64,000 nucleotides of DNA from the NCBI GenBank assembly GCA_963758495.1, contig CAVWVI010000003.1, positions 1,440,001-1,504,000 of the forward strand. The letters run 5' to 3'. The position numbers and the translations under genes are program-made. Under the pieces are notes generated by a model. That model worked only from the letters and a program-made list of their open reading frames with translations. It searched no databases and was not told the origin of the DNA. This DNA comes from Oligoflexia bacterium (GTDB taxonomy: Bacteria > Bdellovibrionota > UBA1018). This document shows positions 1,423-24,451 of the stretch, piece by piece; position 1 is the stretch's first letter; each line of letters begins with the position of its first letter.

Positions 1423-2848
1423 TTACAATAGATTTTGTATCGCCTCTACAGCTTCTCGAATGACTGGATCATGATCCATGCCTGCTTCAATTTTACTACA
1501 TGCGTGTAAAATGGTGGTGTGATCTTTGCCGCCAAAATAACTACCAATCTCCTTGAAGCCAAGACCCGTGTACTTTCGCATGAGATACATCGCAATTTGT
1601 CTCGGAAGTGCTACAGCTCGAATTCGAGTAACAGACTTTAGGTCTTGAATTCTCAAATGGTAGTGCTTCGCCACTGCTTGTTGAATCGATTCGATTGTAA
1701 AATTAGACCCTTCATCAGGAACGGCCGTTTTCAACTCATGTTTTGCCATCTCGAGAGAAATTTCAGCTCCAGTCAATGATGCTTGAGCTTGAAGCCGAAT
1801 TAAAACACCTTCTAACTCACGAACATTAGACTTAATATAAGAAGCTAAAAAAGTCGCGACATCATCTGGAAGATAGATATCATCTCGCTCTGCTTTCGCT
1901 TTAAGAATCGCAATTCTGAGTTTCAATTTCGGGAGGGCTAATATCGGCGACTAAACCCCACTCAAATCGAGTCCTCACACGCTCTTCCAATCCTTCAATT
2001 TCCTTCGGAGGCCGATCACTTGAAACCACGATTTGCCTCTTTGAGCTATGGAGTGCATTAAAAGTATGAAAAAACTCTTCCTCACTGGTGTTTTTGCCTG
2101 CAATAAATTGAATATCGTCGATCAAAATCATGTCGTAACTGTCGCGATACTTCGCTCTAAATTGTGGCATCCGCCTATGCTGTAAAGAATCAATGAGCTC
2201 ATTCACAAATTTTTCAGCTGAAAGGTAGGCCACCCGTGCATTTGGGTTTTGTGCGAGCAAGCGATTTCCAATTGCATGAAGTAAATGCGTTTTTCCTAAT
2301 CCAGGAGGGCTATAAAGGAAAAGGGGATTGTATTGGCGTGCAGGCTGTTCAGCTACCGCAACTGCAGTTGCATGCGCAAATTGATTACTCGCACCCACAA
2401 CGAAACTATCAAAAGTATATCGAAGATCCGGATAATCGTTACCCGATCGAAGACTGGTATGCACTACCCCAGGCGCTGAAGTGACTAATGGAGTGCCGCC
2501 TGAGGACTGAGGGGCGGATATCTGAAAGTCTTGTTCGATCAGGTTAAATTTAAAATCCTTTATAATTTCTTTCACTTGAAGCTGTAGCTCACAGGGTGAG
2601 CCTGCCACTTGTGCAAGAGCGCCCTCAATGGCTTTTTGATAATGATCTCGCACCCATTGGGCCGAAAAGTCATTAGGGGCAGCCATGACTGCTTTATGGC
2701 CATTTTGAACTTGCTCTATCTCCAGCAATTCCAATGGATAGATCCACGCATGGAACTGGTTGGGTACCACCGTCTGCTCTAAAAGACGACAAGCAGCCTG
2801 CCATAATTCGGGCAGTTGCCCTGTGTTGAAGTGAATTGAATTATTCAT
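1423..2848 (-). CDS. dnaA: Chromosomal replication initiator DnaA, split by a +1 frameshift near 1918-1921
   Basis: YNPLFLY..PGLGKTHL Walker A, LIDDIQF Walker B, EEFFHTFN in ORF 1901..2890; SNVRELEG and FGGKDHTT in ORF 1423..1926; ATG at 2848 taken as start. Confidence 0.95.
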
Positions 2849-2946
2849 AGCCGAACTAATTGAACTAACATGAGGGCTTCTACTTGACAATGAGCCTTCT
2901 CTCCGATAATTCCTTTTGATCTTATTTTTTTGGAGCTTTATTTAAT

Positions 2947-9611: not shown

Positions 9612-9640
9612 TTTTGATATCCCAATTTGGGATATCAAAA
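9612..9640. repeat. Perfect 29-bp palindrome TTTTGATATCCCAA-T-TTGGGATATCAAAA, same family as the array at 20626-21119
   Basis: 14-bp arms read directly; + frame reads LISQFGISKMESHGERQNPPF, resembling the ORF6N LxSQFxxSxxxHGGRR region. Confidence 0.85.
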
Positions 9641-9925: not shown

Positions 9926-10410
9926 TGTGGATAAGTCTGTGGATAAGTGTGTGGATAACTTTTCGTCAAAAAACTTATCCACAAGTTATCCACAGGGTTA
10001 TCCACAAGTTATCCACATCTTACACAAGATGTTTGTCTATAATATCAATACCTTATAAAGTTATCCACATCTTACACAATTTCTATCCCGAATGGAATAT
10101 TTGATTAGTTAACTTTATTACTAGGTCTTTGTGGATAACTCTAAAAAATGACCTCAAAAAATGGCTGTTTTTAGTCAATACATGACTACCCATATCAGGT
10201 AAAAAAGTTATCCACAAAATCGTGTGGATAAGTGTGTGGATAACTTTTTTTTAGGGGTAAAATAAAGTTATCCACAAAATTGAAAAAGTTATCCACAGAC
10301 TTATCCACAAAGTTATCCACATGGTTTCTATATTAATTTCAATAAGTTAAGTGAGTTATCCACTTATCCACACGCCCTACTACTACTACTGTCTTAATAT
10401 ATATATAATT
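9926..10410. promoter_or_regulatory. oriC: Chromosomal replication origin oriC
   Basis: 17 perfect TTATCCACA/TGTGGATAA boxes counted between 9926 and 10372; last box followed by CGCCC, TACTACTACTACT trios (10378-10390) and an AT-rich run; directly upstream of dnaN. Confidence 0.95.
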
Positions 10411-20185: not shown

Positions 20186-20351
20186 GATCTGTATATATGT
20201 AAGTTCTCGACGACATCTGCGGGGTTAATCATTTTTTGTGACCCCACAAATGTTGTTGAGAACTTTTTTTTCAAACACTTTCCTCTCCCTTTTTAAATTC
20301 CCTTTTTCCTCCTCATATTTTTGTAACTTTTCTAAAACCTGAATCAAGTGT

Positions 20352-20423
20352 AAGCACTACGCGGAGTCCTGTTGCGCCGGGAATCCAAATCTTTACGGCA
20401 CAACAGGACTCCGTGTAGTGCTT
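20352..20423. repeat. 72-bp GC-rich inverted repeat (28-bp arms, 2 mismatches, 16-nt loop)
   Basis: AAGCACTACGCGGAGTCCTGTTGCGCCG ... CGGCACAACAGGACTCCGTGTAGTGCTT. Confidence 0.9.
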
Positions 20424-20480
20424 GTCAACAGCCCTAAAGGAATTACTTACGATCAAGTGAAGTGTGACATGGCTTCCTCG

Positions 20481-20570
20481 TTTAAGGACGCAATTTGCGA
20501 CCTTAAAGAAAAGTGAACATGGTAACTATCAGAAATACTTATCTTTTACGGAGATGAGTATGATTCTTTA
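20481..20570 (+). pseudogene. Decayed ORF6N-domain fragment containing a palindrome (20481-20507)
   Basis: TTTAAGGACGCAA-T-TTGCGACCTTAAA; frame from 20482 reads LRTQFATLKKSEHGNYQKYLSFTEMSMIL*, resembling LNSQFPISSTEHGGRRYLPYIFTEHGATML in the downstream gene. Confidence 0.65.
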
Positions 20571-20625
20571 AGGTCGCTGATGTGCCGTCAGATAGCGAAA
20601 TGAGAGAGTTGTGAATTGTTCTCCA

Positions 20626-21119
20626 AACTTGAGGTCGCAAATTGCGACCTCAAGTTGCGATGCGTTATTTATAGTCTTAGATATCAAAACTTGAGATGCC
20701 AATTTGGCATCTCAAGTTGTAATTTTCTCGGCGTTCATTGGGTTTTACATTTAAAATCAACTAGTTATATAGGAAATCTTGAGATGCCAATTTGGCATCT
20801 CAAGTTAGATTTACCTAAATTTGCCTACCAATTTTTATTTTAAAATTCATATATACATAAACTTGAGGTCGCAAATTGCGACCTCAAGTTGCGATGCGTC
20901 ATTTGTTATTTCGGGTACAACTTGAGGCGCCAAATTGGTACCTCAAGTTGTAAGATTCTAAAATTTAATAAAAATTCACATTTAAAATCAATTAGTTAGA
21001 TAATAAAACTTGAGGTGCTAAATTGGTACCTCAAGTTTTATAAGCTTTGGAAGTTCAAGTTTTGGGGTGTTAATTTAAGATTTCAAAAAACTTGAGGTCG
21101 CAAATTGCGACCTCAAGTT
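20626..21119. repeat. Array of seven 31-bp palindromes (consensus AACTTGAG-N4-CAA-W-TTG-N4-CTCAAGTT) with 28-57 bp AT-rich spacers
   Basis: Copies start at 20626, 20688, 20776, 20860, 20919, 21007 and 21089; spacers 31, 57, 53, 28, 57 and 51 bp. Confidence 0.95.
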
Positions 21120-21184: not shown

Positions 21185-22102
21185 ATGCAATTAACAATTA
21201 GCGAAATTAGGCGACGGATCTACTTTATGCGTGGTCAGCGTGTAATGCTGGATGTCGACTTAGCAAAATTCTACGAAATTTCAACTAAGCGTTTAAATGA
21301 GCAGGTAAAGAGAAATATCAGTCGGTTTCCGGAAGATTTTAGATTTCGACTTACAGAAAATGAATGTGATGAATTGAATTCACAATTTCCAATTTCAAGC
21401 ACTGAGCATGGAGGAAGGCGATATTTACCTTATATTTTTACGGAGCATGGTGCCACAATGTTAGCAAGTGTTTTGAATACTGACCGGGCCATTCAAGTAA
21501 ATGTAACTATTGTTCGTGCTTTTGTTCAAATCCGTGAGTCCTCAATCCAAAAAGAGCTAGCATTAAAAGTAATGACACTAGAGAAACAGTACACTGAGGT
21601 CTCGAAAGTTATCTCCGATGTTCATTTAAAACTTATGGCCCTGACTTCGCTACAAAAGACTAATTCTTTTAAAACTCGTTACAATAAAGCTGACTTAAAA
21701 GAGCAAGAACATGTCTCGCTTGATACTAAGTTAGAGACACTGACTCTCGTTACAAAGGAAGCTAAAAGAGATTTCAATAACGCTAACGCTATCAATGAAG
21801 TGCCTCACAATCTTATAATCGGCGAAATTCAAAAAGCTGTAGCAAGATATTATAATGTAAAAATTCAGGATTTACGAAGTACAACTCGCATCAAGGTAAT
21901 CGCATTGGCCAGACAAATCGCGATGTATTTAGTCCGAAAACATACGGGGATGAGTTTTAAAGACATTGGAACTCATTTCGGTGGTAAAGATCACACAACA
22001 ATTATGCATGCTTGTAGTAAGGTTGAAGTGAGTATAAAAATAGATGCTTCAATTCGGAACGCTATAGAGTCGATTGAAGGGGTTTTGTCAAAAAATATTT
22101 AA
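21185..22102 (+). CDS. ORF6N (KilA-N-like) domain protein fused to a DnaA C-terminal (domain IV) HTH
   Basis: N-terminal IYFMRGQRVMLDVDLAKFYEISTKRLNEQVKRNISRFPEDF..GGRRYLPYIFTEHGATMLASVL; C-terminal 87 aa align gap-free to this window's DnaA domain IV (53/87 identical by hand); alternative TTG start at 21092. Confidence 0.9.
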   Translation: MQLTISEIRRRIYFMRGQRVMLDVDLAKFYEISTKRLNEQVKRNISRFPEDFRFRLTENECDELNSQFPISSTEHGGRRYLPYIFTEHGATMLASVLNTDRAIQVNVTIVRAFVQIRESSIQKELALKVMTLEKQYTEVSKVISDVHLKLMALTSLQKTNSFKTRYNKADLKEQEHVSLDTKLETLTLVTKEAKRDFNNANAINEVPHNLIIGEIQKAVARYYNVKIQDLRSTTRIKVIALARQIAMYLVRKHTGMSFKDIGTHFGGKDHTTIMHACSKVEVSIKIDASIRNAIESIEGVLSKNI

Positions 22103-22248
22103 ATTATTAAAGTTTATACTCTAAACGATTTTCAGTTGTCTAAAATATAAACACTATTTTCTTAAAACACCCATAAAAACAGCATAATTCCAATACTTTG
22201 TCGTCGGCACCATTGTTGCTTAAGGTAAATCCTACGAAGGATGGAGTT

Positions 22249-22443
22249 ATGATAAGTAAGTCTTCTGCAGGTTTAGATGAAATATTAGAAATACTAGATC
22301 TATTCAGATATGATATGAGTGATTCTGAATACGATCACGCTCGAAAAGTGATCTTATCTAAGGGGAATGGTTTATCAGCTGAATTTGATTTAGCTGTCAG
22401 GGCTGATCAACAGAAAGTCATTGAATTCTTCAGGGAATTATAA
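22249..22443 (+). CDS. Small hypothetical protein
   Basis: ORF with GGAG upstream of ATG 22249; no recognised motif. Confidence 0.45.
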   Translation: MISKSSAGLDEILEILDLFRYDMSDSEYDHARKVILSKGNGLSAEFDLAVRADQQKVIEFFREL

Positions 22444-22477
22444 TGAATTCATATTTTATCGTATATGAATTCATTAT
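22440..22477. repeat. Perfect 15-bp inverted repeat with 8-nt spacer (operator-like)
   Basis: ATAATGAATTCATAT-tttatcgt-ATATGAATTCATTAT. Confidence 0.8.
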
Positions 22478-22493
22478 GTATTTTTAAGTAATT

Positions 22494-23387
22494 ATGAATA
22501 AATTAACTAAATATAGCTATAAGCTAATGGTAATTAATTTCTGGACTTTATTGATAGCGCTCGGTCTGAGCCCATCATGGGTACTTGCATGTAATTCACT
22601 TTTTATTGACGAAGGTACGATTAAAAAAATACCGAGCGTTATTAAGGCAACTGAAAATAGTTCCAATAATTTTCAGGCTTATATTGATGCCTATGAATCA
22701 GCATGTAAGGAACAAAATGAACTCATGACGAGGATCTTAGGCCAAATGGCACCTCATGATCCAACAAAAGACGCTCAAGATCATGAGGTTGTCGTGATCG
22801 ATAATACTCTCTTATCCATTAAAAAAATGATTGAATCCAATTACAGCTTTGAAGAAAGCTGGAACAATAATAGCAGCAGAATAAATACAAACCCGTTTGA
22901 TTATCTTTATCAGGAAGTGTGTCAAGGTAGAATTACTCATTCTTATATACAGTATTCTATATCTAAACTAAGAGAATCTATTTTTAATGGAGGATCTACT
23001 CAATTCAGTACTCAAGAAAATGCTTATCCGCAATTAATAACAGTATTTGAAGGAAAAAAGTTGGTGGGTCTTGCATTTTATGAGTATCACGGTAGAGACG
23101 GCTTCACGGAAGATTCTGTGGTTATTGATTTAATCTGTGTTGCAAAGGGAAAGCAGCTTGGAGAAAAAATAATTACTAGTTTAGAAAATAAAAATCTTAA
23201 AGCCACAAATGCAAATCCAGGTTCTCTGAAGAGAAGAAAAATTACTTTAAACTCTATCGCTAACCCGAAGACATTTAGTTTTTATGAACGAATGTCATTT
23301 AAGGTAGACATGTCTGGAAATTCAGAAGAAGGTATTCCAATGATTAAGGAAATTGAATTCAACCTTACCCAGAGAATTCTCAATTAA
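22494..23387 (+). CDS. Hypothetical exported protein with C-terminal GNAT-like region
   Basis: Signal-like N-terminus; KLVGLAFY..IDLICVAKGKQLGEKII..FSFYERMSF resembles GNAT motifs A and B. Confidence 0.55.
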   Translation: MNKLTKYSYKLMVINFWTLLIALGLSPSWVLACNSLFIDEGTIKKIPSVIKATENSSNNFQAYIDAYESACKEQNELMTRILGQMAPHDPTKDAQDHEVVVIDNTLLSIKKMIESNYSFEESWNNNSSRINTNPFDYLYQEVCQGRITHSYIQYSISKLRESIFNGGSTQFSTQENAYPQLITVFEGKKLVGLAFYEYHGRDGFTEDSVVIDLICVAKGKQLGEKIITSLENKNLKATNANPGSLKRRKITLNSIANPKTFSFYERMSFKVDMSGNSEEGIPMIKEIEFNLTQRILN

Positions 23388-23509
23388 AGAGAACATGCGT
23401 GCGTAAATAATTAACAAATATAATTTAATTAAATTGTATAATACTTAGACAGTTGTTAACGTAATTCAAGTCGCCTTTCTTTTTTTAATCCCATAACCTA
23501 CTGTTTGTA

Positions 23510-24088
23510 TTGATGAAAGCGATGGCATCTGAATTGCTTTTACTATCATTAACTATGATAATAAAAAGCACAAATTTAAAAAATAATACATTAAATACTT
23601 TAATCGCCGGTATCGTGGTCACCACTTTAGTTGCTCTATTCGCCGTTACAGAAAACTCTTCTTATGCTCACTCTCAAAGAGGCGAAATTGCAAGTGCTAG
23701 TGCTCATGTATCAGTTACAGTGGTAACCCCACTCGGTATGGATACAAAGAAGAATTTTACTTTGAATGAAGTGACTCAAGGTTCAAAACCCCAAGTGATA
23801 CAGCCTACTGATCAGGGTGCTACTCAATTTTATGCAACTGGAGAGAAAGATCATCTGATTACACTCTCATTTGATTCTCAAGTTTCCTTAAATGATGGGG
23901 CTGGTAACCAGATTGGTTTTAATCATATCAGATCGAATGTAGGCGATGGAAGTTCTGGAAATAGTACTAAGTTAAATGCTGCAGGAGTCAAAGGTTTTCA
24001 GTTGGGAGGAAGCAGAGCTGCTTTTTCCAAGAATCAGGTAGTCGGGATGTATTTAGGCTTTCTAAAAGCAACTGTTGTTTACCAATAA
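23510..24088 (+). CDS. Secreted beta-rich protein, DUF4402-like
   Basis: Signal-like segment, ASASAHVSVTVVTPL, FQLGG..GMYLG..ATVVYQ pattern. Confidence 0.55.
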   Translation: MMKAMASELLLLSLTMIIKSTNLKNNTLNTLIAGIVVTTLVALFAVTENSSYAHSQRGEIASASAHVSVTVVTPLGMDTKKNFTLNEVTQGSKPQVIQPTDQGATQFYATGEKDHLITLSFDSQVSLNDGAGNQIGFNHIRSNVGDGSSGNSTKLNAAGVKGFQLGGSRAAFSKNQVVGMYLGFLKATVVYQ

Positions 24089-24127
24089 AGTGGAAATATT
24101 CCGTTTTAAGGATATTCTATTTTTAAA

Positions 24128-24451
24128 ATGGAGGTCGTCGTGACGAAAGCATTCTTTTATCTGATTCCAATCTTTATATTGTCTGCCTGCGCTTCGCCTC
24201 GGGTGGGTAATATGGGTCTTCTCTATACGGATACAGAAACGGGTCTAGCTGTGACTCAAAACCTTGCCGGAACTCGAGTCGGCGAGGCATGTTTACAGTC
24301 CTATTTAGGATTGATCTCAACTGGAGATGCGAGTATTGAAACCGCGCGACGTACAGGAGGAATTACCTCTATTACGTCTGTAGACGAGAAATCCACGGGT
24401 ATTCTAGGTTTTATTTATCGAAAATATTGTACCGTTGTTCGTGGAAGATAA
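24128..24451 (+). CDS. TRL-like small lipoprotein
   Basis: Lipobox LSAC; GEACLQSYLGLISTGDASIETA..GGITSITSVD..CTVVRG. Confidence 0.8.
   Translation: MEVVVTKAFFYLIPIFILSACASPRVGNMGLLYTDTETGLAVTQNLAGTRVGEACLQSYLGLISTGDASIETARRTGGITSITSVDEKSTGILGFIYRKYCTVVRGR

Follow-up and report, generated by a model that had tools for sequence, protein, structure and literature searches.

A fusion of an ORF6N domain with the DNA-reading domain of DnaA in an uncultured Bdellovibrionota lineage, and its possible action at the replication origin

A 64,000-nucleotide stretch of an Oligoflexia bacterium contig (CAVWVI010000003.1; hereafter the window) carries a gene that joins an N-terminal ORF6N domain to a C-terminal copy of domain IV, the DnaA-box reader of the replication initiator DnaA. 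The fusion is a real, conserved and apparently undescribed architecture: no ORF6N–DnaA domain IV protein was found described in the literature searched (mostly open literature, with ORF6N papers covered by title and abstract), as an earlier note on this DNA had supposed. The encoded protein is not a DnaA, and any role that it might have in defence is putative. From its sequence it would be a variant of the ORF6N kind, working like an oriC competitor built from the DNA reader of DnaA. The reading that we favor, with confidence about evenly divided for and against, is that the fusion regulates its own gene and binds DNA with two heads, docking on palindromes before that gene and competing with DnaA for the origin boxes. 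The features on which this reading is built are listed in Table 1.

Table 1. Features of the window (nucleotide positions are those of the window; aa, residues of the fusion protein).
Feature	Position	Strand	Remarks
Host dnaA, interrupted near 1918 by a one-base frameshift	2890..1423	-	One extra base
Single perfect palindrome of ORF6N type beside oriC, with GG core	9614..9638	.	Slot is the fusion-gene slot in G042 and G084
Putative oriC, 17 perfect TTATCCACA boxes upstream of dnaN	9926..10372	.	Candidate domain IV target
Array of eight 25-bp odd-centred palindromes	20482..21116	.	AT-rich duplicated spacers
ORF6N–coiled-coil helix–flexible linker–DnaA domain IV fusion gene	21185..22102	+	305 aa; single intact open frame, ATG at 21185 to stop at 22102
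ORF6N domain	aa 11-96 = 21215..21472	+	Matches to Pfam, PADLOC PDC-S05 and PHROG anti-repressor N-termini
Second helix of predicted helix-turn-helix, TKRLNEQVKR, E-type	aa 34-43 = 21284..21313	+	
Decayed internal palindrome	21374..21398	+	Codes LNSQFPIS; relatives LRSQFATS
Long helix, coiled-coil-like (putative dimerisation)	aa 100-165 = 21482..21679	+	Model
Disordered linker, pLDDT <50	aa 171-203 = 21695..21793	+	Variable among homologues
DnaA domain IV, helical	aa 208-304 = 21806..22096	+	Model, alignment
Remaining low-GC insert, atpE–uvrA	22198..24451	+	Three ORFs without Pfam match, one TRL-family gene

Both parts of the fusion are recognized by Pfam within one frame, which bears out the earlier description of the gene. 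Specifically, ORF6N (PF10543) matches residues 11–96 with an E-value of 9.7e-34 (116 bits against a curated cut-off of 27.8), and Bac_DnaA_C (PF08299) matches residues 214–280 with an E-value of 2.1e-29 (101.8 bits against 31.5). Pfam finds neither an AAA nor a Bac_DnaA family in the protein, so the AAA+ domain of DnaA is missing, as the earlier note had also read, and the place of DnaA domain I at the N-terminus is taken by ORF6N. The full-length DnaA model TIGR00362 reaches 109.6 bits, below its cut-off of 343.9, and covers residues 203–298 only. No nuclease or recombinase domain is found by Pfam, and there is no HUH/Y1 nuclease core. The profile of the PADLOC candidate defence family PDC-S05 matches residues 4–142 only, with an E-value of 1.7e-48. 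The AlphaFold model, built on a 122-row alignment with a mean pLDDT of 89, shows the N-terminal domain as compact, with residues 23–30 and 34–43 forming a pair of helices. A homodimer prediction for residues 1–168 scored 0.26, where the mark is 0.42. ORF6N has no sequence relative among solved structures; the fold matches of the N-terminal domain are weak (Dachshund/Ski, Z 6.2-6.4; pSK1 Par, Z 5.1) and name no family.

Domain IV of the fusion retains the fold and the DNA-reading residues of DnaA. Its model superposes on residues 374–467 of E. coli DnaA (PDB 1J1V) with a Z score of 18.3 and a root mean square deviation of 1.1 Å over 94 residues, and this superposition fixes the residue numbering to that of E. 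coli DnaA. Arg235, Arg243, Asp269, and His270 of the fusion are equivalent to Arg399, Arg407, Asp433, and His434, and Thr271, Thr272, His275, and Lys279 to Thr435, Thr436, His439, and Lys443. In the available text of a review, Arg399, Thr435, and the helix 434–451 are the readers of the DnaA box, and the mutations R399A and T435M abolish binding (PMC5742627); all of these elements are present in the fusion. The gapless alignment between the C-terminus of the host DnaA and the residues encoded at 21827–22087, for which 53 identities in 87 positions had been counted by hand, was reproduced with exactly that count, and the motifs RQIAMYL and FGGKDHTTIMHACSK are both there.

We then counted residues in 102 fused domains, four of 106 having been left out as too short. 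The equivalents of Arg399 and Arg407 occur in 102/102; His434 and Thr436 are each kept in 96%, Thr or Ser435 in 95%, Asp433 in 89%, and Lys443 in 87%, and all six of Arg399, Arg407, Asp433, His434, Thr(Ser)435, and Thr436 are present together in 80 of the 102, a set whose retention of these residues is somewhat favored by its having been found with a profile that contains them. Position 401 is basic in only 58% of the fusions. Nine positions that are invariant in 33 DnaA rows of the family (T3, E5, A10, Y45, E73, R83, E87, Q90, and N91) have drifted and are retained in just 9–47% of the fused domains. As the readers are selectively kept while other invariant positions drift, we infer from these sequences that domain IV is maintained for reading DNA and not for contacts inside DnaA. 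In the one orthologous pair compared (G042/G043), the linker has a dN/dS of 0.48, compared with 0.22 in domain IV and 0.24 in ORF6N.

Over the same 87-residue stretch, the fusion and the host dnaA share 64% of their DNA, and only 6 of 18 four-fold degenerate third positions are equal; hence the fusion is not an assembly duplicate of dnaA. In one alignment, the target domain IV is 59.1% identical to the host DnaA, 59.1% to the DnaA of L150, and 58.1% to that of L140, while the median identity between the DnaAs of the family and the host DnaA is 74%. The idea of a copy of the host's own domain IV, taken as recent and host-specific, thus gives way, because other DnaAs of the family are equally near. 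Across the 102 fused domains, the nearest DnaA belongs to the family in 94 cases and to an outgroup of 77 DnaAs in seven, with one tie; the outgroup came from a scan of genome contigs with the fusion alignment, which gave 80 loci, none with ORF6N. The phylogeny proposed as a check gave a divided answer: in both quick trees, which are poorly resolved on 95 columns, the target domain IV falls outside the DnaA group of the family, yet AU tests reject neither a pairing of target and host (p 0.26) nor a single fusion clade (p 0.34). On the ORF6N tree, with the helix columns left in, the fusion label needs four changes. Taken together, domain IV appears to be an old capture from the DnaA of this lineage.

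The same genome (G000) has a second full fusion at C3:1404585-1403654, a paralogue 39% identical to the first, and, at C3:1535846, a fragment of domain IV. When 1.84 billion representatives were searched by profile, 104 of the best 150 matches clustered at 50% had both domains; 103 of these have one ORF6N and one has two, rows of the query included. A 68-member Atlas cluster with both Pfam families bears an automatic name only, its commonest source being Bdellovibrionota, which is also the source label of the homologues P0152 and P0174. Five of the 75 genomes of the family have the fusion, with two copies in G000, three in G084, two each in G053 and G042, and one in G043. Full-length matches are absent from the 41 remaining genomes sampled from the order and from the rest of a 401-genome phylum sample, where up to six candidates were scored per genome. 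A pattern scan of metagenomes gave 64 distinct loci, namely 47 DnaAs, seven fusions, and ten others. Collections of phages (50,697 records) and plasmids (72,556 records) contain no full-length match, a viral scan with the homologue P0004 returned no locus, and no ORF6N accompanies the DnaA-domain-IV-like genes at 107 viral loci (27 plus 80 among the matches listed). Within the genomes sampled, the fusion family is confined to one uncultured Bdellovibrionota lineage. On the results from the phage, plasmid, and viral sets, the phage association suggested earlier from its ORF6N part does not extend to the fusion.

DnaA-domain-IV-like modules were also seen in other settings. Small stand-alone proteins of this kind are encoded on many viral contigs (L189-L295), with 27 and at least 506 matching stretches, and some of them are without the DHTT motif. 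One protein of 673 residues (P0202) consists of five tandem modules. Short frames of 134-176 residues with a domain IV match occur in other families of the order (G098:C58:1369-1638, G027:C184:2295-2555, and G106:C1:25079-25330).

Next to the fusion gene lies a set of palindromes that relate to its ORF6N domain and that the earlier note does not mention. The eight palindromes of the upstream array start at 20482, 20629, 20691, 20779, 20863, 20922, 21010, and 21092; four have GC cores, three GG, and one GG/AG, and the one nearest to the start codon, 68 bp before the ATG, is of the GC type. Genome-wide, this palindrome shape is confined to the array, the surroundings of the paralogue, and the single site at 9614–9638, plus three weak matches at 9 of 12 positions. 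Translated in frame, the palindromes spell LRSQIATS and variants of it, which is an internal segment of ORF6N proteins. At the protein level the segment is present in 120 of 126 parsed plain ORF6N proteins and in 23 of 81 parsed fusions, by a strict pattern that misses some variants and leaves three plain proteins and 25 fusions unparsed. At the DNA level, 30 of 31 plain genes have the internal palindrome versus 8 of 14 fusion genes (Fisher p 0.002).

The core of the palindrome is predicted by residue 6 of the ORF6N helix: Glu goes with GC, Gln with GT, and Arg or Lys with GG. Of the internal half-sites, 59 of 60 from plain genes and 21 of 22 from fusion genes obey this rule; two further plain half-sites go with a Leu helix. 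The target has Glu39 at this position, which makes its GC cores the cognate ones. The helix-matched internal coding palindrome that marks the ORF6N family is decayed in the target, and four GC-core sites are found upstream instead. Among fusions that have no internal site, cognate flanking half-sites number 8/16 for the target, 11/12 for the paralogue (helix Gln, six flanking sites, half-sites of the GT type), 3/4 for L133, and 6/6 for L347, the last two having helix Arg and GG-type arrays. Neither an internal nor a flanking site was seen at two further loci, of which L134 is truncated at the start of its contig and L136 comes from a contig of 2.2 kb. The helix code is followed less strictly by flanking than by internal sites, and scarcely by the flanking sites of plain genes. 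For the GG sites of the target, this genome encodes no matching ORF6N protein of the Arg/Lys type. Cognate sites that persist outside the gene after loss of the coding copy are more in keeping with operators than with spare cassettes, and the array likely gives the ORF6N domain a candidate binding site. The array, its immediate surroundings, and the dnaA–rpmH intergenic region are devoid of perfect DnaA boxes, so no composite site indicates a target there, and matches to sigma-70-like promoters are at chance level (8 versus 7.7). At another locus (L311:114-2451), three tandem ORF6N genes have differing helix types and matching internal palindromes; an intact fusion stands in the middle, between a first gene that is split ahead of its domain IV and a last one that runs off the contig end.

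The window also contains the origin region, which comprises dnaA, yidD-yidC-mnmE, fatty-acid genes, the box cluster, and dnaN-recF-gyrB-gyrA. Outside the origin cluster there are 32 perfect DnaA boxes. The dnaA gene points away from oriC-dnaN at a distance of about 7 kb, with yidD-yidC-mnmE and the fatty-acid genes in between, and G042 and G055 are alike in this respect. The frameshift of dnaA, likewise absent from the earlier note, is probably an assembly error, since at that position the gene is intact in 29 of 29 relatives and 5 of 122 conserved genes tested in this assembly are frameshifted. Frameshifts were noted at about 1918 (dnaA), at about 46451, 48020, and 56960 in a respiratory nuo-like cluster, and at C3:1183230 in a conserved gene. 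A real split of dnaA that the fusion would complement was considered and rejected on the same two counts; it is contradicted as well by fusions beside an intact dnaA in G042, G053, and G084.

The fusion gene is 11 kb from the oriC boxes, inside a low-GC insert between atpE and uvrA, and its neighbors are these two genes and ORFs without a PHROG match. In G042 this slot is empty. The insert ORFs at 22198-24088 (81, 297, and 192 residues) match nothing in Pfam, NCBIfam, PHROG, or PADLOC, and the 192-residue one has a paralogue at C3:1665034. A hairpin repeat at 20350-20455, about 100 bp long with 28-nt arms and REP- or MITE-like, has dozens of copies on all five contigs, one of them 1.3 kb from the fusion paralogue. 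A perfect 51-bp palindrome lies at G000:C4:529984-530034, immediately upstream of an ORF. Rfam has no family at gathering score between 9400 and 24500, and the window contains no tRNA.

We then compared where fusion genes lie with respect to oriC. The atpE-uvrA slot used by the target is occupied in G084 by a fusion of opposite orientation, and a second fusion of that genome ends about 220 bp from the oriC boxes. G042 has one fusion 50 kb away and one at 0.7 kb from oriC; the nearer one lies behind a palindrome and a decayed copy of domain IV. Hence two genera have a fusion gene within 1 kb of the boxes, in opposite orientations. In the present genome, the slot beside oriC holds the lone palindrome; inspection by eye of the six-frame translation around this palindrome showed no evident remnant of either ORF6N or domain IV. 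Of the other copies, the paralogue is 45 kb and the fragment 86 kb from oriC, with a chance of about 0.002 for both to fall within 90 kb. When loci of other assemblies were placed by mapping their best flanking genes onto this genome, six of nine placeable fusion loci lay within 90 kb of oriC and none of ten placeable plain ORF6N loci did (Fisher p 0.003), a comparison in which the unplaceable loci numbered 5 of 14 for fusions and 23 of 33 for plain genes, flank lengths were unequal, kin were non-independent, and the plain genes came from more distant genera. The other three placeable fusion loci are far from oriC.

Because the genes tend to lie near oriC, the most likely role of the proteins is to sit on origin sites and damp initiation. 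In the two-headed mechanism that we favor, we infer the binding steps, the dimer, the autorepression, and the effect on initiation as follows. The ORF6N head, probably as a dimer via the long helix, would bind the GC-core palindromes of the array, which would repress its own gene and form a local sink. The domain IV module on its flexible tether would bind TTATCCACA boxes, above all those at oriC. Lacking the AAA+ and N-terminal domains of DnaA, the protein would not polymerize, unwind DNA, or load helicase, and bound copies would therefore occupy oriC boxes and damp or delay initiation. A gene near oriC would have a higher local concentration of its product and a higher dose just after initiation. 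The net effect would be a self-limited brake. The kept reader residues and the clustering near oriC thus point the same way as the earlier proposal of a DnaA-box binder that would not form the initiation filament. Against such a brake, half of the array sites of the target are non-cognate, and the patchy spread (5/75 genomes) in varied slots and orientations is unlike a core cell-cycle regulator. A more specific version, which we put forward tentatively as possible but doubtful, is a tethered brake made from the reader of DnaA: ORF6N would anchor the protein on an origin-proximal array, from which domain IV would reach oriC, and loading on or release from the array would set the brake, in the cell cycle or in infection. 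If true, the lineage would have a natural mimic of DnaA that is stored on a DNA site of its own, a kind of which no example was found in the literature searched.

Two other explanations are each unlikely in our estimation, and they can hold together. The first is an anti-phage or anti-plasmid effector, which the array would keep inactive in the manner of BstA/aba self-immunity until infection releases it; the released protein would block the DnaA boxes of an invader origin or of oriC, leading to replication arrest or abortive infection. The PDC-S05 match of the ORF6N part speaks for it, and so does the patchy multi-copy spread in variable slots next to toxin-antitoxin-like and unknown genes. 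In the available text on BstA, a KilA-N-like domain and a cognate DNA element belong to a system that blocks phage DNA replication; the aba element there is a 63-bp direct-repeat element, and 'palindrom' does not occur in that text (PMC8585504). A PDC-S05 member lowered plating of T7 and T5 about 1000-fold, but as far as the accessible part of that report goes, the protein tested had Virulence_RhuM and not ORF6N (10.1101/2024.09.26.614923). The fusion was moreover not found in the phage and plasmid records, and defence alone leaves the pull toward oriC unexplained.

The second, to which we assign the same low probability, is an autoregulated transcription factor or a largely selfish gene, whose domain IV would read scattered promoter boxes or anchor the protein to DNA with no real effect on initiation. 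Its nearness to oriC would then result from capture near dnaA followed by local duplication, which is an adequate null for the clustering. The PHROG matches to anti-repressor N-termini, the cognate palindrome just before the ATG, and the 32 boxes outside the origin cluster agree with this explanation, as do decayed fusion copies. DnaA-IV-like modules also recur on unrelated proteins, such as the stand-alone viral ORFs and TnpA_REP of subgroup 2.1.2, which according to the available text is flanked by repeats other than DnaA boxes (10.1101/279083). A domain with intact box readers, however, could hardly avoid an origin of 17 boxes, and the genes directly beside oriC in two genera, in opposite orientations, also speak against this explanation.

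Far less probable is an origin-homing mobile gene, whose protein would link its own palindrome-bearing DNA with DnaA boxes and thereby direct new copies to the neighborhood of oriC, with the palindromes as element ends or exchange cassettes. Tandem and decayed copies and the reuse of slots in opposite orientations (atpE-uvrA in G000/G084, the oriC slot in G042/G084) are what it would predict, but the fusion has no nuclease or recombinase domain, no such Pfam match exists among the insert ORFs, and the sites follow the helix residue even after loss of the internal copy, as binding sites would and cassettes would not. An assembly chimera, which the earlier note had named as its refutation, or a dead pseudogene can be dismissed almost entirely in spite of the frameshifts in 5 of 122 conserved genes tested, because independent assemblies and more than 100 independent homologues share the architecture, the DNA is 64% identical to dnaA with saturated third positions, the frame is intact, and relatives are under purifying selection.

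The two-headed binder combines features of several known systems. It shares the fold and the box-reading residues of DnaA domain IV (PF08299; PDB 1J1V, 3PVP), while its non-reading invariant positions have drifted; unlike DnaA, it is without domain I and AAA+ and has ORF6N joined through a long helix and a disordered linker. Like ORF6N proteins (PF10543) and PDC-S05, it has the N-terminal domain, the long helix that follows, and helix-matched palindromes. It differs from them in its additional DnaA-IV effector, the frequent loss of the internal palindrome, and its position near oriC. With BstA/aba it has in common, as far as the available text of Owen et al. (2021) goes, a small N-terminal DNA-binding domain plus a second domain, a cognate DNA element at its own gene, and a suspected action on replication initiation (PMC8585504). 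This likeness is one of description, not sequence: BstA is prophage-borne, aba is a direct-repeat element, and there is no DnaA domain, the word DnaA being absent from that text (PMC8585504), and no BstA model is among the PADLOC matches of the fusion at an E-value of 0.001. TnpA_REP/TnpA_Y1 of subgroup 2.1.2, with its Bac_DnaA_C-like tail, is likewise a non-initiator, of mobile origin, that has a module resembling DnaA-IV, but that protein is an HUH nuclease, and in the accessible text its authors doubt DnaA-box recognition (10.1101/279083). The fusion has no nuclease, and its domain is close to that of true DnaA.

To our knowledge, the known competitors of DnaA at oriC, such as HP1021 and AdpA, use DNA-binding folds unrelated to that of DnaA. 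The poorly understood ORF6N family gains here a readable effector and a predicted operator, through which ORF6N binding and the replication action of candidate defence proteins become testable together. As the host boxes are the canonical TTATCCACA, the idea is testable at once in E. coli. In its proposed mode the fusion resembles H. pylori HP1021 (PMC4285127) and Streptomyces AdpA (PMC3411110), which in the available texts occupy origin sites and restrain DnaA. It differs from both in that it would compete using DnaA's own reading head, and a family that reuses this head would be a new way of controlling initiation.
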